Origin: Vermamoeba vermiformis | Taxonomy: Eukaryota | Assembly: GCA_045837725.1 (NCBI GenBank) | Contig: JBEWZL010000293.1 | Span: 1-33,616 of the forward strand | Length of the DNA stretch: 33,616 bases | Direction of reading: 5' to 3' | Shown here: positions 4,552 through 33,616 of the stretch, piece after piece | Numbering within the stretch: position 1 is the first letter of the stretch | How the letters are laid out: each line of letters opens with the position of its first letter | Notes under the pieces: generated by a model | The model's database searches: none | Told to the model about the DNA's origin: nothing | The model's input: only the letters and a program-made list of their open reading frames with translations | Program-made: the position numbers and the translations under genes

Positions 4552-4566
4552 AATTGATAATAACGT

Positions 4567-6085
4567 ATGAATACAGATTGCAATTATCGCTGGATCCGAA
4601 AACAAGAAGCGAAGGAAAAAGACGTCACAACCGCATCATCGACCAACGAAGGAGCATCAAATTTTGATTTGAAAACTTTACCTAATGACGTCGTACACTA
4701 CATAATAGGGAATAATAATGAATGGATCCGAAACCAATTAGCGAAACAAAAAGAAACCACATCCGCGTTCAAGTTTGACTTGCAAGCCTTGCCTGAAGAC
4801 CTCATATACTACATAATACCTCATTTGCACTACGAACAAGTAATAATGCTATCCTTGACCAATAAGCGGTTCTACAAGTTGGTCAACGAAGGTCAACATG
4901 TTTGGAGACAAACCTCGAAGAGATATTTTACGAGTATATCGGTTACTACTGCAGCAGACTTCTATAAACAATATAGGTATGTTTATATTTATGAGTATAA
5001 TTGACGTTTAATTGATTCCGCTGGATGTAGATCCAAGTTTGAAACTGGAAAATTACTCCACCAGTATATCATTCCTATTGGAGGGAGTCCGGCATCGATA
5101 GAACTTAATGGAGACAAAATAATATTGACTCAACCATCGACGATAGAAATACTCGAAGCTCATTGCTTGGACAAGCCGCGGATGCAGAATCGTTTTCGCA
5201 AGAAATTTCGTGTCTTTCCCGTTGAAAGGGCAATGAACCGAACTGCTCGATTATATAATAATAAGATATTTACTCATGCGATGCATGGTGTTAATGAATA
5301 TTCAATATCGGTCATCAATGCAGAAACTGGATCTCTAGAAAGCGTGGCTCCATGTTCGCTTAATCTAATGGACGATTATTTATACTTTACTATTGATAAC
5401 AAGTCATTATTAGGAAGGGGTAAGTTTTTAATTAAGAACCGAAGCATTGCTAATTTTTTTTCAGGCTTTTCGATGGATCTTACAACACAACAAATCACCC
5501 AGATTGATTGGACAGCAGAACTATACAAATGGGTTATAAGTGACGATATATTATATGGATTGCAGAGAGTTAACTATTTGGAAGCCAATGAGTTGAAGCT
5601 ATTTGATCGAAGAACTTCCGAGAAAATTGTCGACGAATTGCCCTGCAATGACTTAAGATGTTTTAATGTCAAAGACAACGATATTTATACCGTTTCATCG
5701 CAAATTCTGCAATGGGACAAACGGTATTTATATCAACCGGTCAGAAAATCAATATCGATCCCTACTATCAATCAATATCTAATAAGAACGAGGTATGCAG
5801 TGCCTTTACTTATAGTAACATAACTAGTACTAATTTTTATATAGACTAAAGGTGAGCCAGCTATAGATTTGACAGCAATGAGAGTCATGGGACCAGATTT
5901 GGGATCTGACCGATTTTACTTGGGAGCTTGCCCAACTGCCTAGAGAAAAGTGCTATATAACTACTAATGGTATATTAGTCGCTTATTCAGTCGACGGAGC
6001 AATTAATGTTCGACAGAGCACGTGTACAGAGAGTCTGTCGAACACAATTTCAACTAGCCCAGAATTACGATGTAATGTTTTCTAG
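4567..6085 (+). CDS. F-box protein with a beta-rich (propeller-like) C-terminal part; last exon unresolved
   Basis: LQALPEDLIYYIIPHLHYEQVIMLSLTNKRFYKLV..VW is a clear F-box. Introns at ~4977-5030 and 5420-5464 keep the frame. After the intron at ~5793-5844 the frame stops at 5866, while another frame stays open to 6085. Confidence 0.7.
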
Positions 6086-7506: not shown

Positions 7507-10500
7507 ATGTCCCAAGGGTGTATTGACATCAAGAGTGGGCAGTTGTGCCCATTAGTTTCGCTGCACATCCGATCACTTTTTGTTGACCGCTTTGGTAAAT
7601 CCGAAAATTATATTATTAGTGTAGTTAATAATATAATTAACGTGATGTTTAATGGTAGGCTCAATTGAAGTCGTTCAAGAATACGAAAATTCTGGTGCAG
7701 CGCCGATAGAAGCAGTATTCACGTTTCCAAAAGACGATCAAGCAGCAATAACAGGATTCAAAGTGAAAATAAATGACAAAACATTGATTGGTCAAATCGA
7801 ATCGAGTGATGAAGAACAAGAGAAATACAGTGATGCGATTGCAGAAGGCAAAGGAGCATACTTACTCTCACAAAAACGCTCAGATATCGTCACACTTTAT
7901 ATTGGTAAGTTATAGTGAGCAATTAATTGCGGAAATTAAGATTCAGTGCTAAATCCATACAAATGATAATTTTTTAAAACTTTGACGGAAGCTAAAGTTA
8001 TTCTAATAATTCAATATCAGTAGTATTTATTAACGTTAATATTACGCACATTATTTCAAAATTATTAGTTGGCTCTGAACAAACATTGGATCGGGATCTT
8101 ACCATATTTGTACACAGGCAGCCTTTTACCAAAACAGAAGGTTCAAGTTGAGATCACCTGCGCTGCAGAAGCACAATGGGAAGGAGATTCGCTTCGAATT
8201 ACATTTCCAACGACCATTGCATCTCGTTACACGCCCGAGCAATTTCAACGAGACGAAGAACACCAGATCAACCCTGCTTATCATTCAAACGATAACACAT
8301 TGCCTTATGACTTCGAATTTGAGTCATTGGTGCAATTGACCCACGATAAGATCTCATTGTTTGAATCCCAACGCACAAATTTTCCGAGATCGACATCTCG
8401 CCAGATGGCACCGAAGTGAACGCGAGAGTGAAGGCAACGAAGGGAGATATCGTGTCTGATAGAGATATAGTGCTTATTGTCAATACGAAGGATAACTCGT
8501 TACAAAAAAGGCCAGTTATGATCGATGAAGTTGATGAGGACGGACACCACGCACTTTACCTCTCATTCATTCCAAAAATATTATGCAACGAAATTTCCAA
8601 GAACATAATGCACGAGATTGTATTTTTGATTGATAGGTAAGATTTCAGTTCTTATCTTAAGAAAGAAAAATTTTGATCTAATCTTGACTTCTCTTTAGGA
8701 GCGGAAGTATGGACGGTCAGCAAATGGTTTGTGCCAAAGAAGCTTTGCAACTATTTCTGCGATCATTGCCATCGTGTTATTTCGATATTGTAAGCTTCGG
8801 AAGCAATTACAGCCAATTGTTCGGAAATCCAACGCTCTATTCCAACGAGTCCTTATCAAAAGCCACGAAAGAAGTGAACAAATTTTCTGCCGATTTAGGT
8901 ACGTACATATCGCTAGGGTTAGGGTTTAGAATACTAAATTTGTTAGGTGGTACCGAGATCCTCGCGCCATTAAAGAAGATCTACTCGCGAACACCCACAA
9001 GAGGCAAACGAATAATATTCATATTAACAGGTATGTTATAATATTAAATAATAATAGTACGTTATTAATTAATACTGGCGTTCAGATGGCCAAGTCTCGA
9101 ACACGAGACAAGTGGTAGATCTAGTCAAACAGAATTCGGCTACAACTTCAGTATACGCATTGGGAATAGGTATCTCTGTTAGTAGAGACCTAGTCAATGG
9201 AGTATCGCAGGCTGGTAATGGCTACGCTGAGTATGCTACAGCGAACGAGCGATTACAACCTAAGATCATGTCATTTTTGACACTTTGCCACTTCATCATC
9301 GAATTTCTGCCGTTAGACATTTAAATCAGTCATTTGCCTAACACAATGATATTTCAATATTCTATATCATGATATCGGATTATTGAATTGGCTAAAGTAT
9401 TGACCATTCTGTACGATCAGTTGAAACGAGCGCTTGAGAATTTCTCGGTTCAGATTGATTGGCACTCAAACAAAATTGAACAATTTCCCGAACATATTTC
9501 TCCGATCACTGATGAAGACCCTTTGCACGTGATGGCGTTCGTTGATGACGCGTACCTTCAAAAGTAAGGATCATGACAAAAACACGCATTGTTTCTTAGT
9601 ACTGACGATATAACCTTATTACTAGGAATAAGAGCATAGAGATTAAAATAACGAGCAACAATACCCAAGAATATTCGATCGCGTTTGACTTATCACAAAT
9701 GAAGACAGTTCGGGGCAACAGAATTCATCAATTATTTGCGAAGAAGAAAACGGATGCGATGGCATCTGCGGACAAGAATCAAATTCGCAATCTGCAAATA
9801 TTGTGCAAGAAGTACAATGTACTGTCAAGTGTCACAAGTTTCGTTCTTGTGGAACCCCGAAAAGAAGCTGCAGCGACCAGTCCTGAACTTGTTAATGTTC
9901 CGCTTGCCAGGCCCAAGCCTCCACCAAGAACAGCGCAGACATTGGTGACGAACGGCACCGTGTCATTTGGCGGAAAGTTTTCGAACAGTTACAAAGCCAC
10001 TATTGGTGCAGATTTTGAAATGTGCAGAGTCTTAGTGAATAATCGCGAGATCAAAGTGCAACTTTGGGATCTTGGTAAGTTCGGTTCGTTCATGAAAGAA
10101 ATTTTCACTGAAACTAAAACCTTTTTTTTTCAGCTGGAGCAGAACGATTTGGGCACCATTTATCAAGGGCATTTGCTTCAGGTACTTCAGCAGTCTTATT
10201 AATGTACAGCGTGGCTTCTCGGTCTTCATTCGATAATGTGAAGACCTGGATGGACTCTTTGACTGAACAGATCGACTCCGATATTCCGGTGGTACTAGCA
10301 GGCAATAAGATTGATTGTGAAGGAGAAGTGTCAACGAAGGAAGGACAAGAATTGGCTGCTTCATTAGGCATTCCTTTCTTCGAAATTTCAGTGAAAGATA
10401 CAACGAACTTGGGTGACTTGGCCAAACTACTCTTCGTTAACATGATATTCAAACGACCTAACAGTGCTTTGCATAAAGGTAGGCCGGCACCTATTATATA

Positions 10501-11178
10501 TTATAGATACTAACGCACGTAACAGTTATTATTCTCGGAGACAGTGGTGTCGGAAAGACAAGTTTCAACAGACGAATGGTCGGATCCACAATTGACTTGG
10601 GCGAGTGCAATTTACCAATATCGACAATAAGCTCACAAAGTACCATTACGAATCAACCTCAAAACAATACTTCGGTACTTGGCAAAGTATGGCAAGGTTT
10701 CAAGAGCGTGGTTGGATACTTTAGCAAATCCGGATCTGGATCGGCAGTGCCAAACACTCCTCGTATCACGAGCCAACAGATACAACAATATAAGCCACAA
10801 GTTTCAAATCAAATAATAAGTGATATCATTTTGGCACAAAACGCCGAAGGCGCATTCATAATCGATGCAGCTCAATCTAATCAATTCTTTGGTGGCAATT
10901 ATACGGCTCAAATACCACAAGGAGCCACGCTGAATGTTTGGATGACCATCTTTTGCGTGACGTACTTGACGGTCAAGTGCGGTCAACACAAGTCAGAATG
11001 GGAACTCATCGTTCAAAAAGCTGAAAAATGGTTGAAGAGCGTTGGCGGCAATAAGCCTGAATGGAATCAACGTGCACGACAACTCTTTGCGGTACAATGT
11101 GATCCAGCCTGCTCACGATCGCTCGATATCCACGTTGAAGTAGCCAGGTATGAAATTCAAGACTGTGAGCTTACATAA
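7507..11178 (+). pseudogene. VIT-VWA (VWA5A-like) gene with an embedded circularly permuted Rab7-like GTPase, copy 1; disrupted as sequenced
   Basis: VIT (QEYEN..PIEAVFTFP), MIDAS DR|SGS, GGT and FILTDG, then GTPase motifs and the C-terminal helical domain. Relative to copy 2 it has a 1-nt frameshift at 8367-8369 and a 15-nt deletion removing a splice donor at ~9269. Confidence 0.65.
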
Positions 11179-11507
11179 AATTTAATTTGTTACATGTCAG
11201 CGGAATAATGTAGACTACTATCACGCACTTTGCTTCACGTCTGAAACAACTATTCTTAGTTCCCCAGCAATTTATGTGCGTAGATGGCGGGCTTTAAATA
11301 ATGGTGGCAAAAAGCATCATTAAGTCAGTGATCAGGTGTGTTTCAGCTCGGATCAGAGTTGTAAAATGGAGTTTACAATAGACGTTCAATAACTTAACTG
11401 GTTATTGCTCGGTTTAAGTAATGCCGTCTTGGTGAATCAGCAAATATATTTTTGTTTTGCGTGAGCGGTTGTAAGTTCTAACTTTACGTTAAGAAAGACC
11501 ACAGCTC

Positions 11508-14500
11508 ATGGGTAAGTAAAACCGCGGTTAAACTGATGCATAAACTAACCCAATTTGCAGAGAATAGAGCGACAGTGGATATTACGGCAAAGTACGAGGC
11601 ACTGACTGCTCATCTTCGAACTCTCCAATTTCACTTGCAGTCTCGGGGAATAGAGGCGCCAGAAGTTGACCGAGCTGTAGCAACACTAGCATATTATGAA
11701 AGACAAAATGCAACCGTCTTGTGTGGAGTGGCTGGAGCAGGCAAATCCACCTTGTTGAACATTTTACTGGGCTACAGCTACCTACCGACCACCAAGCCTG
11801 ATGAACCTGGACTCTCCGTCACTCCAATTGCTATAGAAGTCAGAAAAACGCGTTCTATAGGAGACAGAATCAAACTTGAAGTGCATTTGATTGACGACGT
11901 ATCTTGGAAAATCAAACGAGGAAGGAATATCTCTCCGGTAGAAGAGAAGAGCGAAGAAGTAACGGAAGCAAGTCAGAACTTTCTCAGCGCTGTTTTTGCC
12001 CAGCAGTCGGTTTTTGACTTCAATAACACATTCGACTGGAGTAACAACCTTGCTAACTTGAAAGAAGAGCAATTTGATGACCCGATTTCCGATTTCCTTC
12101 GTTCTACACGAGTGGTTACTGAATGGGATACAGTTCCTTCTGTTGTCAGCGACAAACTACAGAGCTATATTGATGATCGTCTGGCGCCATTGATCGTGCA
12201 GAAGATTGTCTTAATTGGAGCTTTCACCAACGGACACTTGCCAGAAGAAACAATTATATTTGATCTTCCTGGCAGCGGTGACATAAACGACGAAAAAGAA
12301 GACCAAAGACGAAAAATGCTAGTTAAAGCCCGGCGCGCCATTGTTGTGGTGCCACATAATACGAGATTTAAAAGCGTCAAAGATGCGGTCACCATGACTA
12401 ATGAGCTCTCCAACACCTACGTTGACAACACTGTCTCTCTTCAGGACCAGAGCTTGATAGTTTTCAATCGGGCATGGAGTAGAAAGAAGGGCCAGACCTT
12501 AGAATCAGCTTGGCAGGAATACCAGCAAAAAATCAGTGGTACGCAGCAATCAATATTGGCCAACTGTGCGTTTTTGGATGATAATGAAGTTGACCACACT
12601 GAATTCAACAAATTCTTTGACACGCAACTGGCTGTTATCAAGAGTTTTATTGCACAAATCAATCTCGAAAAAGAGAAAGCCTTCACACAAATTCTGGACC
12701 AATTGCGAATTGCTGCTTGGCGTCTTGGATCACAGAAAGCGCCATCACTTCCAGATATTCCAGAACAATTTAAGCAATTTCATGTGGGTCTATCCAAGCT
12801 AAAACATGCTTTAGTTGAGCAAGTATCCTGTGCACCAGCGAACGCAAGCTTGTTCAAAGAGACATTCGACAAGATTGTTCGCTGCTTCAGTCATAATTGG
12901 AAGTCAAGTGATGCCTTTGCTAGGTATCGTGGAGTGTATGGAGGACGTAAGTAAATTGACTTTTTTTTTCATCAATTATTAACAACACATCCGTAGGCTC
13001 AGGCAGTGCTGATGTACCACAAGACTTTGCTGATTTACTATTGGCAAGTCAGCAAATTGATTTTGGCTTATTGAATGAGCATCTGAGCAAAGTTTGGCAA
13101 ACCAATGCAACCAAGCAGTTCAACCAGTCTCTGAACAAAGCTATAAGGAATGCAATTCACTCCGTTATTTTGAACAATTATTCTGGATTTTTGTATGGCC
13201 CTTATTATGGCACTTCAAACTACATCAATGTCTTCATGGAAAGATTTTGGAGAGACTGGCCTACAATTAAGGAATTGGTCATTGCAGCAATTAAATTCCA
13301 GCTTAGTGAATTCAATACTCTGGTAGAGCAACGTGTCCTACTATTGACAACAATTCACCAGAATTCTCAACTAACGGTGGATCAAATGAAATCAGAAGTC
13401 TCTGCAACCCTTCCATTACCAAATCATCAAGCCATCCGTTGGATTATGAAATCTGTCTATCAACTATATAATATATGGATTCAATATCACCCTGGATACC
13501 AGTTTGCAGACTTGACAGCTGTAAAGCCAACTCAACTCTGGGAAAAGGAAGACAATGTTGAATACCTTAAACCAACCTTTACTTCATTTCTGCTGTTTGG
13601 CCAAGCTCTCCCATGGTTACCTCGATTTTCAACTCCAACAGTTATTGTCATACGCTACCTTGGTTTATCAAAGGAGCATGTAGAGGTATTGAAAAGATGG
13701 TTAGATCCACAGCTCAAACAATCACGAAAGTTGGAAATAACAGTAGATGTAACTGGAAATGACATTGATCAAGAATCATTGAACGAATTGAACTCCAAGT
13801 ATTCAGCATTGAAAGTTGAGTTCGTAGATTCCATCAAGTACACCGCAAGCTCTTTGGTTCCTGATGCTCCTAGCTGCCGAATTGGAATTGTCATTGGCAA
13901 TGCAAATTACAATGCTCCAATTGCTAGTTGTGCTAAGAATCAGCAGTCAGTACGCCAATTCCTGCAAGGCTTGAAGTTCACTATCTTGGAAACAAACGAA
14001 ATCAAAACACGTAATGAATGGAACTCGCTAATATTGCAACTGGAGGATCAGTTGAAAGAACAAACGTCACGAGCACTGATTGTATTCTACTACAGTGGCC
14101 ATGGGTGCATTGTCGAAGGAAAGCACTGCATAGTGTCCACAAGCAATGATATTATTCCGTTGACGAAGCTTTATCACATTTGCCAAACCAAAGATACCAC
14201 CAACATATTCATAATGGATTGCTGTCAAGCAGGCTTTAGTTCGGACCAAGTCGATGCTGCCATCGTTAAAGAAGCAAAAGACAAGTCCTTCCCTGCTCGC
14301 TTGCTTCGATCTTTTGCCAGCTGCCCGTTGAACTACGCCTATGCACCACTTGCAAACGTCAATACAGTATACACGCAGATCAATCTCAAGCATCTAGAGC
14401 GCGCTCATGCAACTAGACAATCGGTTGTAGAAGCATTGAGAGCTGCTGCCGATGAGTACGATCAATTGACAGATGTTCAGAAAGGTCAACCGTACATCTC

Positions 14501-14534
14501 CGTATCAGGAGCCTTCCCCTTTTTTAGCCTTTAA
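11508..14534 (+). CDS. Dynamin-superfamily (NUGGC/SLIP-GC-like) GTPase fused to a caspase-like C14 peptidase, ~975 aa, 3 exons
   Basis: Exons 11508-11511, 11561-12946 and 12997-14534 splice in frame. GTPase motifs: G1 GVAGAGKSTLLNILLG..LPT, G2 VT, G3 DLPG, G4-like FNR, plus HNWKS..A..RYRG. Peptidase motifs: IVIGNANY, FYYSGHG, FIMDCC, QPY. Confidence 0.85.
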
Positions 14535-14713
14535 GTTACAGCAATTGCAATGACAGTCATGACCGCTGTGCTTCCTTTCACTTTTCTTTCCCCTTAGTAA
14601 ACAATAAATCACTTCACGGCTTAACATCAAATAGTTCTCGTTCCAATCAATCTTGTTAGCATTATTTTAATATAAGTATAAAAAAAGATCGCAAACATAC
14701 ATGGCATCAGAGT

Positions 14714-16911
14714 TTAATTGAGGTAATCTCCGTCCAAAAAGTTTGCAGCTTCTTCATCCGTATCCACATGTTCATTTGTATCGTCATCAACGCTGATTGG
14801 CTTATCATAATCATTGCGAATAAGCACTAATATTAATACGGCCCCAATAGCGGTAATTATTCCGCCGAATATAAACACGAATTCGAAACTGTTCCATATT
14901 CTTAAGATTAGCGATGACGTGCCTGAATTAATCAACTGCGCAAAATACATCGCCAATGTGCTCGTTGCCAAATATAGACCTGTTAACCATATTTAGTAAT
15001 TCTTCATGGATTCAACAAATTCGCTCATAAAAAAACTTTACCTTTTTTGGCAGGAGTGTTCTGTACGCAAACAGCAGATATGCTCCAAGGAATAATGAAT
15101 AACTAAATATTACAAATATTAATATTATGGCACTAACAAATGGCTCGCTGAAGCGTTATGGATCTGCCTTGATTTTCAAGATATTGAATGCTTACCGAAA
15201 TAATGCTGGAACTCATCACCGCATTAATAACCAACGCTACAGGAAAAGATCTAACGAATAATGTAGCAAAGAAGGTCAAGGCCTTAAATTATCAAAATGA
15301 TTAGACGTCCAAAAACAACACTCTTGAATCATTAAATGACTTACGAATGATAGCTGAGCGAAGAAATAAACGGGCTTAACGCCAATCTTATTGACCATAA
15401 AGATCAATAACGGTGCATAAAAGAATGAAACGAGACTTCCAACAGCGGATCCGGTCGCAGCCAACATAACTCCGTTCTAATTATAAATAGGTTATTAATA
15501 TTCGCCAAAATGCGCGCTAGTAACTGTTAATGAAGCTTACGTTATATTTGTCGTGCGCTTCAGACCCATTAGGCGCGGATGGATCTCCACCAGCAATATA
15601 AATTCCGTACCAAGTCGATGAATAGAATGTCCAAGTAGAATAACCAAAGTACCCAAACAATTTAACGATAAAGTTTCTCTTCATTCGTCGAGGTAAGTTC
15701 GGCAACGCGAACACGACTTCCTAAAAAGGAAATAATTTGTAAGCGCCTGGATCTGCTTTGGTAGAATCGATAGAATAATGAATCTACGTTAAGTGCACTA
15801 TAATATGGATGTAATACTATATCTCTATTACGTTATAGACTTACCTTAATGCTGCCCCAAAATGAAATCTTCTTTGAAACCACGTTGTTTGTAGGTGGCT
15901 CCTTGACGAATATAATGCATAATAATGAGCATACTATGAGCAAGAATGACCCTAACGTCACCATCGCTCGAAGTTCGTTGCCCATAAACGGCAAGACCAT
16001 CATAATACTGAATGATACGTGCGGTATTTTGCCAGCAAGAAGTCCCGACAAAACTCCTCCGAGACTAGCAAAGCCTTAATAATACGTTATTAGCATTGAA
16101 CTTTAATGATATACGATTACTTACTGGCAATAAATCCATTGCCTGACTTTTGTTGCTGCGACGAAGCTCGATCCGCTAACAACGCGATAATTGCGGGCTG
16201 AAAGATACTCAAAGCGAAATCGAGGATCCAAAAGCTTGTTATAGCTAATGCTAGAGCAATAGCGGTCGAGTCTTCAGTGTCTAAGAAAATTATAAGCTCG
16301 TGTAACGGATTTGGATCGCGTTTTTTCGTACCACCGAGTAACGTTCCAAAATAATCAGAAAAGGCGAAGCATTCAAAGAATATGACAGTAGATATTGTGC
16401 CTAATACTATGAACGGCTTTCTTTTGCCCCATCTGTTACGCATGTGTCAGATTTTATTGCGGAAATTTAGCATAGAAATTTCCTTATTTGGATTTTACTT
16501 ACCGACCACGCCAATTATCGCTTACAGTTCCAATCAATGGCTGCGTTAGTATTCCTGATACTGGCCTACATAATTACGTTAATTCGATGCTCACTATTTT
16601 GAGAAGAATCAGAAAAAACGGATCTATTATTTCTCCGTTAATGCTTTGCTAAGCTAAGAAATTGATTATATTCAATAAATGTGGAGTATAATGAGGTCAT
16701 ATTATTTGCGTCGTGAGATTGCCGATAAATGAGAAAAAAAATTTTCGCTCGATCTACACTTACCCAGCGAGCCAGATCCAAGGCACGATCCAATTTTCTA
16801 GGCCCAAATTAAGTAATGTAGGTGTCGTAAATATCGATTGAATAGCGCGAACAAAAGCCCAGGCAAAGATCGGCAATGTTATTAAGAAGAGTTCTTTTTT
16901 GCTAGCCACTT
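14714..16911 (-). pseudogene. SLC45/SUT-family MFS sugar transporter, copy 1, lacking its start codon
   Basis: Same exons as copies 2 and 3 (WLAGPVSGILTQPLIGTVSD..RWGKRKPF). A ~300-bp deletion removes the ATG and first ~33 codons, and the frame has a stop just upstream of the junction. Confidence 0.7.
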
Positions 16912-18100
16912 TGTATCATATTGAATTGCCAGTTAACAATGCAAAATATGCACACTTGCTCAGGACTTCTCCACCATCAAGGAAAGCAGAGACGGATTCA
17001 CGTGGAACTTTTCTTCAAATGAAACATCAAACACTTCAAAAAAAATATTTGTTAGTAAGTAAAATACAAATATGCAAGCGTGCAGTATTATTGGGAAAAT
17101 AACTTGTTGGTGAACAAATCCAGATGGAAAACAATTAAACTTAATTTAATTGATTGTGTACCATCTCATTACTTACCGCATAATATTTTAAAGCCACCAA
17201 TACGCTATATTTAATAGTATGCAATATTTTAACGATTTTGTTGTGCCCAGTTCATCTCACCACCTTTTTAAACGGTCTTTAAGACCTTTAAACAAGCAAT
17301 TTAGCATCAAAAACTGCATTACAATCGTTTAATTTATCCTGCGTTGTTTGAGCGTTCGGCATTGTTTTCATTTTAAATTAATTTTTCGTGACCAGATGAA
17401 GAGAACACGCACGCATCTGATCACAAAAACATTAATTTAAAATGAAAACAATGCTGAACGTTCAACAACACAACATAAATTAAACGATTATAATGCACCG
17501 TTTGATGCTAAATTGCTTGTTTAAAGGTCTTAAAGACCGTTTAAAAGGTGCGATGAACTGGGCACAACAAAATCGTTAAAAAATTGCATACTATTAAATA
17601 TAGCGTATTGGTGGCTTTAAAATATTATGCAGTAAGTAATGGGATGGTACACAATCAATTAAATTAAGTTTAAATTTTTCATCTAGATTTGTTCACCAAC
17701 ACGTTATTTCCATAATACTGTACCGTAGTGTACGTTTGAATATTTGTATTTTACTTACTAACAAATATTTTTTTGAAGTGTTTGATGTTTCATTTGAAGA
17801 AAAGTTCCACGTGAATCCGTCGCTGCTTTCCTTGATGGTGGACAAGTCCTGAGCAAGTGTGCATGTTTTGCATTGTTAAATGGTAATTCAATTGTTACAT
17901 AATTCTAGTTCGTATTTACTTTTGTACGCTGCAACAATTACGAATGAAAAGTCAATTGAAATTATCAAATTCGCTGCGGCTGGCACAAATAATAGAATTG
18001 CAGAGCTAGAACAACTATTTATTATTAGTCTGCATCAGGAGACTACTGCAACAAATTTCTAAAAGAAGATCTAGGTTGACGAACGGGCATCTCGATCGTG

Positions 18101-20404
18101 ATGAGCCAGAAAAGCTACACGTTTGATACAGAACATATTAATTCAGATTTATATGAAGATAATCTCTTAAAATTTGATCGATATTCTTCGGGCCAAGAAC
18201 AAGTGGCCAGCAAAAAAGAACTCTTCTTAATAACATTGCCGATCTTTGCCTGGGCTTTTCGCGCTATTCAATCGATATTTACGACACCTACATTACTTAA
18301 TTTGGGATTAGAAAATTGGATCGTGCCTTGGATCTGGCTCGCTGGGTAAGTACAGATCGAGCAAAAAAACTTTTTTCTCATTTATCGGCAATCTCACGAC
18401 GCAATAATATGACCTCATTATACTCCATATTTATTATATTATCAATTTCTTAGCTTAGCAAAGCATTAACGGAGAAATAATAGATCCGTTTTTTCTGATT
18501 CTTCTCAAAATAGTGAGCATCGAATTAACGTAATTATGTAGGCCAGTATCAGGAATACTAACGCAGCCATTGATTGGAACTGTAAGCGATAATTGGCGTG
18601 GTCGGTAAGTAAAATCCAAATAAGGAAATTTCTATGCTAAATTTCCGCAATAAAATCTGACACATGCGTAACAGATGGGGCAAAAGAAAACCATTCATTG
18701 TGCTAGGCACGATATCCACTGTCATATTTTTCGAATGTTTCGCCTTTTCCGATTATTTTGGAACGTTGCTCGGGGGTGCGCTGAAAATAGTTAGATACAA
18801 ATCCGCTACACGAACTTAAAATTTGATTTAGATACCGAAGATTCGACTGCTATTGCCTTAACATTGGCTATAACGAGCTTTTGGATCCTTGATTTCGCTT
18901 TGAGCGTCTTTCAGCCTGCAATTATTGCTTTATTAGCCGATCGAGCTTCATCGCAACAACAAAAATCAGGCAATGGATTTATCGCAAGTAAGTACTAATA
19001 TCATATCTATATATAATATATAACGTTATATCATAAGGCTTTGCTAGTCTCGGAGGAGTTTTATCAGGACTTCTTGCCGGCAAAATACCGCATGTATCGT
19101 TCAGTATTATGATGGTATTGCCTTTTATGGGCAACGAACTTCGTGCAATGGTGACATTAGGATCGTTTCTGCTTATTATTTGCTCGTTATTGTGTATTAT
19201 ATTCGTCAAAGAGCCGCCAACGAACAACATCGTTTCGAAGAAAATTTCATTTTGGGGCAGCATCAAGGTAATGAATTAATACAACTATAGCTATAGTACC
19301 GTCATATTATAGTATTATTAATACGGAATTACTATTCTATTGCTAATTTCAATGTAGAAAAATGCTCTTACAAATTATTTCCTTTTTAGGAAGTCGTATT
19401 CGCGTTACCCAACTTACCGCGACGCATGAAAAGGAATTTTATCGTAAAATTATTCGGATATTTCGGATATTCGACTTGGACCTTCTATTCTTCGACTTGG
19501 TACGGCATTTATATTGCTGGAGGAGATCCATCCGCGCCCAACGGATCTGAAGCTCATGATAAATATAACGTAAGCATAATATAGACTAAATAGTATTATT
19601 TTATCGTAATTTAATGCTGTTTTATTTTTAGAATGGAGTTATGTTGGCTGCAACCGGATCCGCTGTTGGAAGTCTCGTTTCGTTCGTTTACGCACCAGTA
19701 TTGATTATTATGATCAACAAGATCGGCGTTAAACCTGTCTATTTCTTCGCACAGCTATCATTCGTAAGTCTATCGATCTTTTGCTGAAGTTTTGGATGTG
19801 GATCTGATATCGATGTATTTTACAGGCGTTAACATTCTTTGCTACGCTCTTTGTGAACTCTTTCCCCGTCGCTTTGATCATCAACGCACTAATGAGCATC
19901 AATATTATTTCAGTAAGTTTTCATCATAATCGAAAATTTGGTCGCGGATGCAGGTGCCAATCCGTAACTTCAGGAGAGCTAATATTGAATAATAATGCTA
20001 ATTTTGATTATTCGTAGCTATTTATTATTCCTTGGACCATATCAGCAGTTTGTGTTCAGAACACACCTGCCAAAAAAGGTAAAGTATTTTTACGATCAAA
20101 TTGAAATTCGACGAAGAATTACTAAATATGGTAATTAGGACTATATTTGGCAACGAGCACGCTCGCGATGTACTTTGCACAGTTAATTAATTCAGGCACG
20201 TCATCGCTCATCTTAAAACTGTTCAATAGTTTCGAATGGGTGTTTTTGTTCGGCGGAATAATTACCGCTATTGGCGCCGTATTAATATTAGTGCTTATTC
20301 GCAACGATTATGATAAGCCTATTAGCGTTGATGACGATCCCAGTGAGCTCGTGGATCCAGATGAAGAGGCGGCAAGATTTTTGGATGGCGATTACATCAA
20401 CTAA
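18101..20404 (+). CDS. SLC45/SUT-family MFS sugar:H+ symporter-like protein, copy 2, multi-exon
   Basis: Signature IWLAGPVSGILTQPLIGTVSD..GRWGKRKPF, FWILDFA..FQPAIIALLAD and GGDPSAP; multiple hydrophobic segments; GT-AG introns. Confidence 0.88.
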
Positions 20405-20451
20405 CGCAAACTTATAATTGTAATACTAAATAATATGCCCAGAGCAATTAT

Positions 20452-23182: not shown

Positions 23183-26100
23183 ATGGCACAACAAGGGTTT
23201 ATCGACATTAAGACTGGACAGTTATGTCCTTTAGTTTCTCTTCAAATCCGATCCGCCTTCATCGATCGTTTTGGTAATATTCTTGATAATATACAGCTGT
23301 ATAAATAACTTAGTAATTTTTTTTCCTTAGGTTCTATTGAGGTTGTCCAAGAATACGAAAACACAGGCAAAAATCCGATAGAAGCAGTATTCACGTTTCC
23401 AAAAGACGATCAAGCAGCAGTAACAGGATTCAAAGTGAAAATAAATGACAAAACGCTGATTGGTCAAATTGAAGCCAGCGATGAAGCACAAGAGAAATAC
23501 AGTGATGCAATTGCTGAAGGCAAAGGTGCATATTTGCTCTCTCAAAAGCGATCAGATATCGTCACTCTTTATATTGGTAAGTTTTATCGTGGTAAATTAC
23601 GCAAATCTTGTCATCTTTTGGATGCTGTGCTACATCTGGTCCCGAAAATATTTTCTAAATCTTACACGAACTTTAAAATAAATTAACTTAGCTTAAATTG
23701 GGTATAACAATTTATTCATGATTTTTCTCGACATTTATTCGATTTTTTGGTCTCGTCTAAGAAAAATCGGATTCGGATCTGACTTAACTTTTATTTAGGC
23801 AGCCTGTTACCACAACAAAAGGTTCAAGTCGAAATAACATGCGTTACAGAAGCTCAATGGGAAGGCAAAGCACTTAGAATAACATTCCCAACGACCATTG
23901 CACCTCGTTACACGCCTCAACAATTTCAGCAAGACGAAGATCACCAGATCAACCCTGTTTATCATTCAAACGATAACCAATTGCCATACGACTTCATATT
24001 CGAATCGTCAGTGCAATTAACGCATGATACAATTTCATCATTTGAATCTCCAACGCATAAATTTTCGGAGATCGACATCTCAGCGGATCGAACCGAAGTC
24101 AGCGCGAAAGTGAAGGCAAAGAAAGGAGATATTGTGGCTGATAGAGATATCGTTCTAATAGTTCATGCCAATAAGAGATCGTTGCAAAAAATGCCGATTA
24201 TTATTGATGAAGTAGATGAAGCCGGACACCACGCACTTTATCTCTCGTTCATTCCAAAAATAATTTGCACCAAAATTTCGAAGAAAAAAATGCACGAAAT
24301 TATATTTGTTATCGACAGGTAAGAAATTCAACGGTAATTATCATTTCAAAATTTTAAGATCCATATTTAAATTTTTATAGGAGCGGAAGTATGGACGGTC
24401 AGCAAATGAATTGTGCGAAAGAAGCTTTGCAATTATTTCTTCGTTCATTGCCCGCATGTTTCTTCGACATTGTCAGCTTTGGATCGAACTTTCAACAAAT
24501 GTTTGGATCTCCTGCTCAATATTCTAACGAGTCTTTGGCGCAAGCTACTGAACAAGTGAAGAAATTTCAAGCTGATTTGGGTACGCTGCAAATATTCATT
24601 TTTATATTTACTAAACGTGAGAATAAGGTGGCACGGAGCTTTTGCGGCCTTTAAGCCAGATCTACCAACAATCACCAAAAGGTGGCAAAAGAATCATATT
24701 CGTGTTAACAGGTACGTTATATGTTAAATCACATATATTAGTATTAATTAATTCTTTGCTTTAGATGGTCAGATCTCGAACACGCGTCAAGTGGTGGATC
24801 TCGTCAAAAAGAATTCGGCGACAACTTCAGTATTCACGCTGGGAATAGGCGATTCTGTTAGTAGAGACCTAGTTAATGGCATGGCGCAGGCGGGTAATGG
24901 TTACGCTGAATATGCAACGGGCAACGAGCGACTTCAACCTAAGATCATTCGACAGGTAAAAATGTCATTTATGACACTTTGACACTTTGACACGTGTCAA
25001 ATTGAAGTTTATTAAGTCACGCTATACAACCTTAGTACTACATTTAAATCGATGATAGTGTATTTTGAATACTATACTTAGCTATTTTATGAAATGACAG
25101 TTGAGGCGTGCCCTTGAAAACTTCTCCGTTGAGACTGATTGGCATTCACGAACGGTAGAACAGTTCCCAGAACATATTTCTCCGATCTCCGATGAAGATC
25201 CGTTGCACGTGATGGCATTTGTTGACGATAGGTACCTTCGAAGGTATAAATTTTATCCTTCTAAACGAGTTCCAGGAATTAATTCTTTTTTATTTTAGCA
25301 ACAAGAAGATTACGATCAAAATCAGTTGCGATGACAAAAATGAATATTCGATCCCGTTTGATCTCGCTCAAATGAAGACAGTCCGCGGCAACAAAATTCA
25401 CCAATTATTTGCTAAGAAAAAGGCTGATGCAATGAGTTCTGACGTTGCAGCCAACAATAAGAATCAAATTCGCAATCTGCAAATATTGTGCAAAAAATAC
25501 ACCGTGCTGTCAAAAATCACAAGTTTCATTCTAGTCGAACAACGAAAAATTGCTACAACGACAACACCAGAGCTCGTAAATATTCCGCTTGCCAGACCTA
25601 AGCCTGCGCCGTTGACAGCTCAAACAATAGTGACCAATGGCACGGTGTCACTTGGCGGAAAATTCTCGATGAATTACAAAGCGACAATTGGTGCAGATTT
25701 TGCCACGTGCAGAATAGTATTGGCTGATAGAGAAGTGAGAGTGCAATTATGGGATCCATGTAAGTATCATTCGTTCATGAACCAAATTTTCACTGAACTG
25801 ACTTCGAAATTTTTTCACAGCCGGATCTGAACGATTTGGTGGACCGTCGAGAATATTTTATAGTGGAACGTCTGCAGCTGTTATTATGTACGATGTGCAT
25901 TCTCGAACTTCATTTGACAACATGAAAGAATGGACGGAGAAATTGACCGTGCAAGCTGGATCCGACATTCCGATGGCTTTAGTGGGCAATAAGATTGATA
26001 CAGATGGTCAAAAAGTTTCAGCGGGAGAAGGCCAAAAATTAGCAGATTCATTGGGCATTGCTTTCTTCGAAATTTCCGTGAAAGATACCACGAACATGGG

Positions 26101-26842
26101 TGACTTGGTGAAACTGCTCTTCGCTACTATGATATTGAACGATCCGAATAATACTGTGCTTAAAGGTAGGCCGACACCTATAATAATAGTTAATAGATCT
26201 AACGGGGTTTTAGTTATTATCCTTGGAGATTCGGGCGTCGGAAAGACCAGTTTCAACACGAGACTTGCCGGATCCACCATCGACTTGAGCGACATTGATA
26301 CGCGAAACTTAATAGGCTCGCAAAGTACCTCTCAAAATGCCTCTCAAGCCCAGGCTACTAATGACTCGTTACTTGGAAAAGTATGGCAAGGCTTCAAAAG
26401 CGTGGTTGGTTATTTCAGCGGATCCAGATCTACAAATGACGCGTCAACTGCGACTACAAATACGAATAATACAAGCAATAATGTTAACACTATGCCCGTG
26501 CAAAAGTCACAAAATGTCATGGTGCAGTTGCCCCCGAAGCAAAAGAAGGTCGATTTGAATGCCATTATTTTGGCGCAAAACGCTGAAGGCGCTTGGAACA
26601 TCACCGCAGCCGAATCAGTTCAGCTTTTTGGATCGGATCTGACAGCTCAAGCACCGCAAGGCGTCAAACAAGATATTTGGATGACGATAGTTTGTATCGC
26701 TTATTTGGCGGTCAAATGTAGCCAGCACAAGTCAGAATGGGAATTGATCGTTCAAAAGGCTGAAAATTGGTTGAAAACTGTTGGTGCAAACAAACCTGAA
26801 TGGAATCAACGCGCAAGACAGTTGATACAACAAAGTGTTTGA
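23183..26842 (+). CDS. VIT-VWA (VWA5A-like) protein with an embedded circularly permuted Rab7-like GTPase, copy 2, apparently intact
   Basis: MAQQGFIDIKTGQLCPL start, VIT domain, MIDAS DR|SGS, GGTEL and FVLTDG. Then [44 protein letters not shown] and the C-terminal EWELIVQKAENWL domain. Confidence 0.88.
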
Positions 26843-26928
26843 AAGTAAACGTGCAGTACGTTGATTTTCCCAAATAAGGCAATTTTATCGACCACTTCGC
26901 CACGTGACAATTTTCTCGGTCGTTGATC

Positions 26929-27011
26929 GCATCGGTGCCCGAGTTGGTCTAAGGGGTTGGATTAAGGCTCCAATATCTTCGGATGCAAGGGTTCGAATCC
27001 CTTCCGATGCA
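26929..27011 (+). tRNA. trnL-AAG: tRNA-Leu, anticodon AAG, identical second copy
   Basis: Same sequence as 365-447, followed by a T-run. Confidence 0.96.
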
Positions 27012-27506
27012 ATACCTTTTTTGCGTTCTAGATCTCTCGAGGGTACGTGGCCTATTAATATTGTTGCGTAATTCCAGCGGATCAAACCAAGAAAACTGAG
27101 TAAATAATATTTTAATATTTACATTGTTGGGTGAAGCAAAACGCGAAAAACGTTCGTGTTCGCCTTCGTTTTTTTTAGAATCGCTACAAAATTATTGGCT
27201 AACTATTTTTAAAATGGACCAATGAGATTTTACCGGCACCCTATAAATATACCTGCCATTAGCGACCGCTAAAAGATTCAATAACACTGGTACTTAGTCG
27301 AGTTCAACGAGTTTGAGACGTTTTGGCGTATTCCATGGTTCCTTTCCATTTTTGGAGTTAGCCCTGTTACGCTATTGGTCCGCATTATTTTAAGAGCGGC
27401 CAAATAAATCACTAGGCACCTTCCTTAGAAGAACCTACCGATACCGACTTCGGCCAAGAAAAAATCGTTTTTTGGATCTTGTTTGTTGATAAGCACAATC
27501 TTCAAC

Positions 27507-30408: not shown

Positions 30409-30609
30409 GCTCTGAATATAGTTGCATTTACTGTTAGACCCATAAATATACTTTGCTCTTAATCGATAGTTGCGCAGTTTGACTCGATCTGATCGTTAAG
30501 ACGAGACTTGATATATCGCTATATGTTCGCTAAATAATTATATCTACATTATTTCATATATAATTGCTCTCGGCATATTATTTAGTATTATTACAATTAT
30601 AAGTTTGCG

Positions 30610-32922
30610 TTAGTTGATGTAATCGCCGTCCAAAAATCTTGCCGCCTCTTCATCTGGATCCACGAGCTCACTCGGATCGTCATCAACGCTAATAGGCTTA
30701 TCATAATCATTGCGAATAAGCACTAATATTAATACAGCACCAATAGCGGTAATTATTCCGCCGAACAAAAACACCCATTCAAAACTATTGAACAGTTTTA
30801 AGATGAGCGATGACGTGCCTGAATTAATTAACTGTGCAAAGTACATCGCTAGTGTGCTCGTTGCCAAATATAGTCCTAATTACTATATTTAGTAATTCTT
30901 CGTCGAATTTCAGTTTGATCGTAAAAAATACTTTACCTTTTTTGGCAGGTGTGTTCTGAACGCAAACTGCTGATATGGTCCAAGGAATAATAAATAGCTA
31001 AATATATACATATTAGCGTTATAAATCAATATTAGCTCTCCTGAAGTTACGGATCGGCATCTGCATCCGCGACTAAATTTTTGATTTACGATGAATACTT
31101 ACTGAAATAATATTGATGCTCATTAGTGCGTTAATGATCAAAGCGATGGGGAATGAGTTCACAAAGAGCGTAGCAAAGAATGTTAAAGCCTGTAAAAGGA
31201 GACATCGAGATCAGATCCACAGCCAAAACTTTGCAGCAATAGATCGATAGACTTACGAATGATAGCTGGGCGAAGAAATAGACCGGTTTAACTCCGATCT
31301 TATTGAGCATAATAATCAATAATGGTGCGTAAAAGAACGAAACGAGACTTCCAACAGCGGATCCGGTTGCAGCCAACATAACTCCATTCTAAATATAAAA
31401 CCAGCATTAGATAACGATAACACAATACTATTTAGTATCGATTATGCTTACGTTATATTTGTCATGCGCTTCAGATCCGTTAGGCGCGGATGGATCTCCT
31501 CCAGCAATATAAATGCCGTACCAAGTCGATGAATAGAAAGTCCAAGTCGAATATCCGAAATATCCGAATAATTTTACGATAAAATTCCTTTTCATGCGTC
31601 GCGGTAAGTTAGGTAACGCGAATACGACTTCCTAATAAGGAAATAATTTGTAAGAGAATTTTTCTACATTGAAACTAACGATAGAATAATAATTTCTAAT
31701 GAATAGTACTATAGTATGACCGTACTATAGCTTTATAGTGGTATTAATTCTTTACCTTAATGCTGCCCCAAAATGAAATTTTCTTCGAAACGATGTTGTT
31801 CGTGGGCGGCTCTTTGACGAATATAATACACAATAACGAGCAAATAATAAGCAGAAACGATCCTAATGTCACCATTGCACGAAGTTCGTTGCCCATAAAA
31901 GGCAATACCATCATAATACTGAACGATACGTGCGGTATTTTGCCGGCAAGAAGTCCTGATAAAACTCCTCCGAGACTAGCAAAGCCTAATGATATATGTT
32001 AGATATTATATGTAAATATGATATTAGTACTTACTTGCGATAAATCCATTGCCTGATTTTTGTTGTTGCGACGAAGCTCGATCCGCTAACAAAGCAATAA
32101 TTGCAGGCTGAAAGACGCTCAAAGCGAAATCGAGGATCCAAAAGCTCGTTATAGCTAATGTTAAGGCAATAGCAGTCGAATCTTCAGTATCTAAATCAAA
32201 TTTTTAAGTTCGTGTAGAGGATTTGGATCTATTTTCAGCGCACCTCCCAGCAACGTTCCAAAATAATCGGAAAAGGCGAAACATTCGAAAAATATGACAG
32301 TAGATATCGTGCCTAGCACAATGAACGGTTTTCTTTTGCCCCATCTGTTACGCATGTGTCAGATTTTATTGCGGAAATTTAGCATAGAAATTTCCTTATT
32401 TGGATTTTACTTACCGACTACGCCAATTATCGCTTACAGTTCCAATCAATGGTTGTGTTAGTATTCCTGATACTGGCCTACATAATTGCGTTAATTCGAT
32501 GCCTACAATTTTACGAAGATAACAGAAAAAACGGATCTATTATTTCTCCGTTAATGCTTTGCTAAGCTAAGAAATTGATTATATTCAATAAATATGGAAT
32601 ATAACGAGGTCATGTTATTGCGTCGTGATATTGCCGAGAAATGAGAAAAAATTTTTTGCTCCATCTGTACTTACCCAGCGAGCCAGATCCAAGGCACGAT
32701 CCAATTTTCTAGGCCCAAATTAAGTAATGTAGGTGTTGTAAATATCGATTGAATAGCCCGAACAAAAGCCCAGGCAAAGATCGGCAATGTTATTAAGAAG
32801 AGTTCTTTTTTGCTGGCCACTTGTTCTTGGCCCGAAGAATATCGATCAAATTTTAAGAGATTATCTTCATATAAATCTGAATTAATATGTTCTGTATCAA
32901 ACGTGTAGCTTTTCTGGCTCAT
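30610..32922 (-). CDS. SLC45/SUT-family MFS sugar transporter, copy 3, multi-exon
   Basis: Near-identical protein to copy 2 (identical last-exon translation), with an intact start MSQKSYTF. Confidence 0.88.
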
Positions 32923-33616
32923 GACGATCGAGACGTCCTTTCGTCAACCTAGATCTTCGGTTAGAAATTCGTTGTAGTAGTCTCCTGATGCAGACTAATA
33001 ATAAATAGTTGTTCTAGCTCTGCAATTCTATTATTTGTGCCAGCCGCAGTGAATTTGATAATTTCAATTGACTTTTCATTCGCAATTGTTGCAGCGTACA
33101 AAGTAAATACGAACCATTTTAATTTTGTATCAATTTGAATTACCAGTTAACAATGCAAAATATGCAAACTTGCTCAGGACTTGTCCACCATCAAGGAAAG
33201 CAGCGACGGATTCACGCGGAACTTTTCCATCGTAGCATCCTTCAAACACTTCAAAAAAATATTTGTTAGTAAGTAAAATACAAATATGCAAACGTGCACT
33301 ACGTTATAGTATTATTGGTAAATAACGTGTTGGTGAACAAATCTCTTAGATGAAAAATTTAAACTTAATTTAATTGATTGTGTACCATTTGATTACTTAC
33401 CGTATAATATTTAAAGCCACCAAACGCTATATTTAATAGCATGCAATTTTTTAACGATTTTGTTGTGCGCAGTTCATCTCACCACCTTTTTAAACCGGCT
33501 TTAAGCCTTTAAACAAGCAATTTATCATCAAACGGTGCATTATATAATCGTTTATTTTATGCTGTGGTGTTGAGCGTTCGGCATTGTTTTCAAATTAAAT
33601 TAATTTTTTTGATTAG

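Follow-up and report, generated by a model that had tools for sequence, protein, structure and literature searches.

A protist gene combining a SLIP-GC-like G domain, a helical stalk, a short LRR-like linker and a caspase-fold protease in one predicted polypeptide

Introduction

Caspase-fold proteases are normally activated when an oligomerising platform distinct from the protease gathers them; such platforms are the apoptosome, inflammasomes, BCL10 filaments and, for caspase-4, GBP coats. The zymogens of these proteases, such as MALT1 and the initiator caspases, become active through dimerisation. MALT1 is recruited in trans into BCL10 filaments. Dynamin-superfamily proteins, for their part, pair through their G domains when nucleotide-bound and assemble through their stalks, and the IRGs are dynamin-superfamily GTPases that assemble on pathogen-containing membranes. 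The combination of an NTPase (nucleoside triphosphatase) switch with a caspase-like effector is an established theme (PMC7159879, PMC8195603, PMC3417536), NTPase or GTPase switches being fused to, or paired with, such effectors in conflict and apoptosis systems (PMC7159879, PMC8195603). The GTPases named in these papers are the AP-GTPase (Ras-like), GIMAP/AIG and the DO-GTPase (PMC7159879, PMC8195603, PMC3417536); the word 'dynamin' is absent from PMC8195603 and PMC3417536, and 'dynamin-like' from PMC7159879. SLIP-GC, a GTPase of the dynamin type, is presented as a nuclear protein guarding genome stability in germinal-centre B cells (PMC12107551). Here, we report that in a 33,616-nucleotide stretch of Vermamoeba vermiformis DNA (contig JBEWZL010000293.1, positions 1 to 33,616; the whole stretch is called the window), positions 11508-14534 of the plus strand form a single gene with three exons, expressed in a microbial eukaryote. 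The product of 975 amino acids (aa) almost certainly has four parts: a SLIP-GC/NUGGC-like G domain, a stalk, a linker resembling leucine-rich repeats (LRR) and a caspase-fold protease.

Gene structure and transcript

The two longest stop-to-stop frames of the window adjoin each other on the plus strand (11482-12954, 490 codons; 12960-14534, 524 codons), and the third-longest frame anywhere in its 33.6 kb has 346 codons. An interpretation made earlier from the letters of the DNA (the sequence-only reading) had linked these two open reading frames (ORFs), in frame, through a 50-nucleotide (nt) GT-AG intron at 12947-12996 into a product of ~975 aa. This stretch of 50 nt does carry GTAAGT at its 5' end, a TTAAC branch-like site and TAG at its 3' end, and its excision brings both frames into phase, with the junction codon split by this second intron into one base and two bases. 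The proposal was confirmed by an RNA-derived Logan contig of run X1 (3155 nt, depth 52, 0 differing letters against the window), which falls on the window in three pieces (11340-11510, 11560-12946 and 12997-14593; record 2 of the run). The contig lacks exactly the 50 nt predicted and, in addition, a 49-nt GT..AG intron just past the start codon, whose joint in the contig lies at 11510->11560 (cut +1) and whose canonical GT..AG reading is 11512-11560. Both introns open with GTAAGT, hold a CTAAC-like branch site and measure ~50 nt, a form that seems reminiscent of fungal introns. As a single contig spans both ORFs, they do not belong to separate transcripts, and the spliced coding sequence (11508-11511 + 11561-12946 + 12997-14534, 2928 nt) translates into 975 aa with 0 internal stops.

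Of the words sampled from this region, 85-89 % were present in the four best-matching runs, which belong to a single study; this is the share expected of spliced RNA alone, since introns and flanks are missing from it. The mapping of reads and contigs covered 11300-14800 and contig placement was done for run X1; the RNA label of this run is a guess, and the ends of its contig do not define RNA ends. A Met codon at 11536-11538 was considered as an alternative start and rejected, because it lies inside intron 1 and is removed by splicing. The leader of the spliced transcript (168 nt) holds two short upstream ORFs (8 and 4 codons), which may restrain translation of the main ORF, and an AATAAA is found on the plus strand at 14603-14608, i.e. 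69 nt past the stop codon and 10 nt beyond the contig end.

The G domain

The sequence-only reading had assigned to the product a P-loop GTPase, a helical region and a C14 (caspase-like) domain, a division upheld by Pfam and by our family alignment (A1). Dynamin_N (PF00350) matches with 38.5 bits against a gathering cut-off of 27 (residues 52-279 of the translation of 11563-12945), and G1, the conserved switch-I Thr (in a ...S/TxT... strand) and the DxxG of G3 are all intact. The P-loop is near-invariant across the 13 GTPase-bearing rows of A1 (GxGK over four positions, then [ST]T).

The same reading's guess of a NUGGC/SLIP-GC-type GTPase is supported by sequence comparison. In a family-profile search the best named matches, after the family itself, were two avian 'SLIP GTPase' entries (E 3.9e-15 and 4.6e-15), and hhalign aligned the family with one of them at 98.5 % probability (E 2.4e-15, 182 columns running from G1 through a long insert to G3). 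The GTPase half of the window protein by itself reaches one such protein, P0061, by BLASTP (E 2e-5, around G3). The alignment ends after G3, past which no similarity was detected, and the avian sequences are partial (576-626 aa). Among solved structures the family profile recovers Irgb10 (E 1.1e-9, in two stretches, G1 and G3-G4) and Irgb6/TGTP2 (E 2.8e-7), and it matches the SynDLP sequence across the whole G domain (E 3.1e-5). Membership in the IRGs was rejected: the Pfam IIGP model (PF05049) finds no match in the window halves at E <= 1, and the relation to the solved IRGs is visible at profile level only. A STAND ATPase domain (NACHT or NB-ARC) was likewise not found, the sole STAND match being nSTAND3 in the P-loop region (E 0.082, 13 bits, cut-off 27.2).

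The same profile search returned, at weaker E-values, Dynamin_N proteins carrying other modules: a kinase (P0068), a chromo domain (P0067) and TPR (P0070). The first is a scallop protein of 1036 aa whose C-terminal kinase was confirmed with Pfam; the other two were recognised by precomputed Pfam only. These sequences hint that this kind of G domain may be modular.

The caspase-fold domain

The C-terminal domain is almost certainly of caspase fold (within the four-part description taken as a whole), and in structure models it comes closest to the paracaspase domain of MALT1 and retains both His and Cys of the dyad. The Pfam match to Peptidase_C14 reaches 54.4 bits (cut-off 21.4), and the C-terminal 294 residues of the window protein itself were modelled with a pLDDT (predicted local distance difference test) of 92.1. 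In a comparison against 48,161 chains, independent of Foldseek, MALT1 (3v4o_A) ranked first (Z 24.9, root-mean-square deviation 2.3 Å over 211 residues, 18 % identity, spanning model residues 69-294), followed by caspase-9 (Z 21.8), caspases-8 and -3, the bacterial GSU0716 (Z 18.4), the metacaspase AtMC9 (metacaspase-9; Z 18.0) and legumain (Z 15.6); the model of the homologue P0001 gave MALT1 as well (Z 24.7). The absence of a caspase fold, which would have undone the sequence-only reading, is thus contradicted by the modelled structure.

Sequence profiles point the same way: the broad profile A3 matches MALT1 at E 7e-33 and caspases at ~1e-11, and the narrow family profile A4 matches MALT1 at E 0.002. 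Both align His832 and Cys873 with the catalytic GHG and DMC of MALT1, and the three corresponding residues of A3 (H151, D190 and C192; 50 rows) are each kept in at least 90 % of rows. The catalytic His in SGHG and Cys in DCC had been placed at 14100 and ~14223 beforehand, and both positions proved exact. Because Asp871 stands two residues before the catalytic Cys, as it does in para- and metacaspases, the P1 preference is probably basic.

Stalk and linker

For the stalk we relied on an AlphaFold2 model of P0001, a homologue 49 % identical to the window protein (18-row alignment; pLDDT 79.1; pTM, the predicted template-modelling score, 0.50, which makes the inter-domain arrangement unreliable). 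All Foldseek statements on this model rest on the best 50 of at least 500 matches. Its N-terminal three quarters matched best the dynamin-like protein (DLP) SynDLP (7zw6; E 1.8e-11, 846 columns), then BDLP, IniA, the Campylobacter DLP pair, MxB, Drp1 and dynamin, and the matches to MALT1 and caspases fell on its C-terminus. The succession of large G domain and helical stalk was thus recognised in a model of this homologue and not in one of the window protein, the E-values ranging from 1.8e-11 to 2.6e-7 and the aligned lengths from 618 to 846 columns. The template-modelling (TM) scores of the DLP matches are low (0.22-0.31), because the poses of stalk and domains differ or are unreliable. A long helical stalk like that of bacterial DLPs is accordingly part of the modelled four-part architecture that we hold to be almost certain.

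Between stalk and protease, the linker (profile positions 562-641) matches the LRR of NLRP1 (E 2.3e-5), the GALA LRR and ribonuclease inhibitor, and in the window protein's own model it runs strand-helix-strand-helix-strand. Its motif is conserved in every full-length member of the family. This segment had escaped the sequence-only reading, as had intron 1 and the loss of the guanine-specifying Asp of G4 (see below). When the two closest homologues, P0001 and P0002 (85 % identical), are compared, identity is lowest in the mid-stalk (aa 401-520, 65-75 %) and in the LRR region (72 %), and the P-loop and catalytic blocks are 100 % identical.

Relatives in sequence databases

The architecture is real, rare and unannotated. 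Longer relatives of the second half of the gene were found in two JGI proteins (962 and 964 aa, on 3.1-kb contigs), each with precomputed Peptidase_C14 and Dynamin_N, and both window halves are colinear with them (47 % and 50 % identity). Three uninterrupted database proteins (962-966 aa) span the splice junction gaplessly, and in the four-way alignment with the spliced product the residue of the junction codon equals that of P0003. Overall, the spliced product is 49 % identical to P0001 (950 positions) and 43 % to P0003 (945 positions).

An exhaustive HMMER search with P0001 through 1,835,955,588 representatives recovered 57 proteins at E <= 0.001, 11 of them at <= 1e-10 and 3 at <= 1e-30. 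Pfam was run on 15 of the 57, and five (P0003, P0007, P0012, P0022 and P0041) combined Peptidase_C14 with a Dynamin_N-type P-loop region, both at E <= 0.001. Four of these five are distant, and their Dynamin_N scores stay under the Pfam cut-off; in P0022 Peptidase_C14 also falls just under it. Together with P0001 and P0002, seven database proteins thus share the N-to-C architecture. The ten hits whose sources were traced (six of the seven fusion proteins included) came from JGI/IMG, ENA, Logan and one EukProt transcriptome; NCBI and UniRef contributed none of them. JGI names four of these ten, as well as P0002, 'energy-coupling factor transporter ATP-binding protein EcfA2' (P0001, P0003 and P0015 are among the bearers), a mislabel resting on the P-loop only. 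Being almost absent from annotated databases and mislabelled where present, the family would be missed by ordinary annotation.

Other searches added no relative. Metagenome, viral and prokaryote-genome collections, scanned with alignment A2 for loci of homologues, gave pattern matches and no confirmed relative, and P0041 gave no relative in metagenome contigs either; as such scans hang on a handful of exact-peptide patterns, they are weak evidence of absence. No usable match came from the ESM Atlas with P0001, nor any match from a word-indexed search with the GTPase half at 'near' lengths, and phmmer with either half alone found nothing meaningful among PDB sequences, for which profiles were needed. 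In PADLOC, the LeoA/LeoBC models of Eleos, a dynamin-like system of anti-phage defence, remained unmatched by the window halves (the homologues reached 14-20 bits, over the P-loop only), and what else appeared were weak P-loop or caspase matches. Dynamin-family and caspase-domain proteins of giant viruses occur in BFVD as separate proteins, none of the 50 matches listed covering both. Full-text literature searches, with supplements and subscription papers outside their scope and the broader queries judged from titles and the starts of abstracts, found no paper describing a fusion of a dynamin GTPase with a caspase.

Table 1. Features of the GTPase-caspase gene (positions in the window; aa, residues of the 975-aa product)
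Feature	Position	Strand	Basis
Extent of spliced transcript contig	11340..14593	+	Run X1 contig
Upstream ORF 1, 8 codons + stop, ATG at 11366	11366..11392	+	Ends ahead of main ATG
Upstream ORF 2, 4 codons + stop	11421..11435	+	Spliced leader sequence
Coding exon 1, ATGG	11508..11511	+	First ATG of spliced contig that opens the long frame
Intron 1, 49 nt, GTAAGT...ACTAAC...CAG	11512..11560	+	Run X1 contig
Coding exon 2: N-terminal helices, G domain, first half of helical stalk; aa 2-464 (first base of codon 464)	11561..12946	+	Contig and Pfam
Pfam Dynamin_N match with long insert (~150 residues) between switch I and G3	11716..12399	+	38.5 bits
P-loop / G1, GAGKST, aa 60-65	11734..11751	+	Motif
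G3 / Walker B, DLPGSG, aa 236-241	12262..12279	+	Motif
G4-equivalent strand end, FNRAW, aa 303-307, without the Asp of N/TKxD	12463..12477	+	Aligned with Irgb10 TKID
Intron 2, 50 nt, GTAAGT...TTAAC...TAG	12947..12996	+	Joint 12946->12997 in contig
Coding exon 3: second half of stalk, LRR-like segment, caspase-like domain, stop TAA at 14532-14534	12997..14534	+	Contig and Pfam
Short RNI-type LRR-like segment, ~two beta-alpha repeats, aa 682-741; ...D.TGN... motif at 13749-13760	13650..13829	+	Window model and profile
Predicted caspase-fold domain (Peptidase_C14, paracaspase-like), aa 750-975	13854..14531	+	Pfam and fold
Predicted catalytic His codon, His832 in SGHG	14100..14102	+	Aligned with MALT1 GHG
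Predicted catalytic Cys codon, Cys873 (second Cys of DCCQ), preceded by Asp871	14223..14225	+	Aligned with MALT1 LLDMC

Proposed mode of action

The sequence-only reading had suggested a single-chain sensor, oligomeriser and protease for defence or cell death, which the domain content makes a reasonable guess. Given that dynamin-superfamily proteins pair when nucleotide-bound and that caspase-fold zymogens are activated as dimers, the simplest mechanism would be a nucleotide-dependent assembly that switches on proteolysis. We therefore propose, tentatively and at slightly less than even chance, that the protein acts as a single-chain switch-plus-executioner; as an explanation of the locus as a whole, we regard it as about evenly poised to be the best one. 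While the protein rests as a monomer, its protease would be inactive, like other caspase-fold domains in monomeric form. Some trigger, perceived either at a membrane or by way of the variable stalk/LRR region, would lead the G domains to bind nucleotide, upon which they would pair and the stalks assemble, as in other members of the superfamily. The C-terminal proteases, thereby brought side by side, would become active through dimerisation (the induced proximity of MALT1 and the initiator caspases) and would cleave cellular substrates, leading to cell death or to a defence or incompatibility signal. Hydrolysis of the nucleoside triphosphate (NTP) would reset the assembly.

Several observations weigh against this proposal. 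The G4 Asp is lost: the window protein reads NRAW at the place of TKID in Irgb10 and of TKTD in the SLIP GTPase P0061, and the Asp is kept in 0 of the 13 GTPase-bearing rows of A1, NRAW-like residues standing in its place across the GTPase-caspase family. GTP specificity, and even hydrolysis, are consequently in doubt and the nucleotide could be other than GTP; judged from the alignment, the loss lowers confidence in the specificity and not in the fold. Of the three acidic positions in the S1 pocket of MALT1, just one is kept here (that before the Cys), so that the pocket appears only partly para- or metacaspase-like and the cleavage preference is in doubt. With ~two repeats the LRR-like piece is too small for a ligand sensor in the manner of NLRs, and the divergence of mid-stalk and LRR region, which fits a sensing surface located there, comes from a single pair of proteins. 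To these may be added the unreliable placement of domains in the P0001 model. In the window protein the analysis identified neither a signal peptide nor a death-fold adaptor nor an element for membrane binding. Expansion within the lineage, which is typical of immune receptors, was not seen either (one copy in the window), and the raw RNA runs X21-X23, which bear the same species label, gave 0 reads from the ~6 % of each that was sampled, too little to test expression.

A wider idea, which we consider somewhat unlikely, is that SLIP-GC-like G domains are an unrecognised counterpart, in eukaryotes, of the STAND/NLR switches, with a GTPase-stalk core to which effectors and sensors (protease, kinase, TPR, chromo) are attached interchangeably. 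The present protein would then be a single-chain 'dynamin inflammasome': driven by nucleotide, it would assemble on the surface of a pathogen, an organelle or non-self, and the assembly would directly dimerise and trigger its caspase-fold domain, so that the cell is killed or alarmed. If true, this would suggest an ancestry for the unexplained NUGGC of vertebrates.

Alternative explanations

Two other functions deserve to be weighed against the switch-plus-executioner. The protein may be a membrane-remodelling DLP (engaged in fusion, fission or repair of organelle or plasma membranes, in the way of BDLP, SynDLP, IniA or the mitofusins) whose protease acts on the protein itself or on a substrate nearby; it would then be a housekeeping or developmental enzyme and no device of immunity or death. 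We find this improbable. The best whole-chain folds do belong to membrane-active bacterial DLPs (SynDLP, BDLP, IniA and the Campylobacter DLP pair) and to Drp1 and dynamin, and a conserved aromatic-rich loop between two stalk helices (~aa 530-560) could be a membrane paddle; its single copy in the window would suit such a role too. The nearest named relatives by sequence are, however, SLIP-GC and the IRG GTPases and not the fusion/fission dynamins, and the Pfam scan recognised no transmembrane or known lipid-binding domain. Besides, a family as extremely sparse as this one (57 matches in 1.84 billion representatives) is ill-suited to housekeeping, and an LRR-like piece next to a caspase fold is a signature of death and immune proteins.

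To a similar degree we doubt that the protein serves signalling as MALT1 does, its assembly triggering limited, specific cleavage of a few regulators, or scaffolding, that changes physiology or gene expression without killing. MALT1 acts in signalling, both as protease and as scaffold, and is no executioner. The protease domain comes closest to it by fold (Z 24.9, the best caspase reaching 21.8) as well as by profile (E 7e-33, caspases reaching ~1e-11). Similarity of fold is nevertheless no proof of a MALT1-like function, and the strong profile match stems from A3, which is dominated by other, mostly unnamed caspase-like proteins, whereas the narrow A4 reaches MALT1 at E 0.002 only. Furthermore, Pfam showed nothing in the window protein that corresponds to the death and Ig domains of MALT1 or to the CARD/BCL10 partners of MALT1, the N-terminal 750 residues being taken up by G domain, stalk and LRR-like segment.

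That there is no functional fusion at all (an artefact of assembly or annotation, a read-through of two genes, or a decaying pseudogene) is practically excluded. Nothing was found in its favour, the guessed RNA label of run X1 being the one weak spot, and it is opposed by a contig from which both introns have gone at exact GT..AG borders and which shows no further difference from the window, by the fitting share of words, by an open frame of 975 codons with conserved catalytic and nucleotide-binding motifs, and by the same N-to-C architecture in seven database proteins from other sources.

Genomic surroundings

The GTPase-caspase gene is single-copy in the window and is flanked by duplicated blocks. 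Upstream lies a multi-exon gene (~7513-11178, plus strand) in which vWA occupies 8688-9041 and a G domain of the Ras family 9606-10513; it further encodes a second P-loop (from 10507) and a C-terminal region. The paralogue of this gene (~23192-26842, plus strand; 74-81 % identical in DNA and 58-68 % in protein) also shows a VIT exon (23309-23686), and a fragment of the same VIT-vWA-Ras gene was detected at 90-263. The association of VIT-vWA with a Ras-like GTPase is in itself an unusual, conflict-system-like architecture. As a fixed partner of the GTPase-caspase gene it was rejected: behind the paralogue, a gene for a transfer RNA (tRNA), tRNA-Leu(AAG), and repeats occupy the place of the GTPase-caspase gene, of which no copy follows, and hence no fixed gene partnership is seen. 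Downstream, on the minus strand, is an MFS-transporter-like multi-exon gene (14714-16911) with two further copies (18201-20404, inverted, and 30610-32822; 83 % DNA identity).

Two tRNA-Leu(AAG) genes with equal scores were found on the plus strand (365-447 and 26929-27011), each ~100 nt downstream of the 3' end of a copy or fragment of the VIT-vWA-Ras gene, and their flanks (113-457 and 26677-27021) are 93 % identical. An inverted duplication relates 17420-20451 to 30560-33613 (93 %), and further large duplications are present in direct and inverted orientation. Segmental duplications thus turn the window into a mosaic, whose one large coding block without a second copy is the GTPase-caspase gene. 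At 4564-5004 (plus strand) an exon-sized ORF encodes an F-box-like domain (E 6.8e-7), and it is followed by an ORF of 272 codons (5005-5823) with no Pfam match.

Comparison with known systems

Like the window protein, NUGGC/SLIP-GC has a Dynamin_N G domain in which the same long insert separates switch I from G3; unlike it, the avian SLIP GTPase entries have no caspase domain (Pfam) and keep the canonical TKxD of G4. The present gene would thus give a readable output domain to this barely studied branch of the dynamins. The IRGs (Irgb10, Irgb6/TGTP2, Irga6) and other immune GTPases of the dynamin superfamily are the best sequence matches of the family profile among solved structures, but IRGs measure ~400 aa, have neither the long stalk nor the protease, and do not appear among the best 50 of at least 500 Foldseek matches. 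The best whole-chain folds are those of bacterial DLPs (SynDLP 7zw6/9em9, BDLP 2j69, IniA 6j72 and Campylobacter DLP1/2 5oxf; Foldseek E 1.8e-11 to 1e-7 over 690-846 columns), which are proteins of membrane fusion or repair and carry no protease domain.

MALT1, the closest solved fold to the C-terminal domain (with GHG and D-x-C aligned), differs by its death and Ig domains, which are absent here, and by finding its oligomeriser in trans, whereas the window protein would carry one in the same chain. A dynamin-type assembly engine and a protease within one polypeptide would offer a compact system in which to ask if nucleotide-driven assembly gates a caspase directly. With NLR inflammasomes, the apoptosome and prokaryotic NTPase-caspase systems the protein would share a logic, namely a switch whose oligomerisation depends on NTP, a module of repeats, and an effector of caspase fold that proximity activates. 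The switches of the NLR type are STAND ATPases, whereas the one described here is a dynamin-type G domain of the TRAFAC class with its protease covalently attached, and it would extend the pairing of NTPase switch and caspase effector, represented mainly by STAND ATPases and small GTPases, to the dynamin-like GTPases of eukaryotes.

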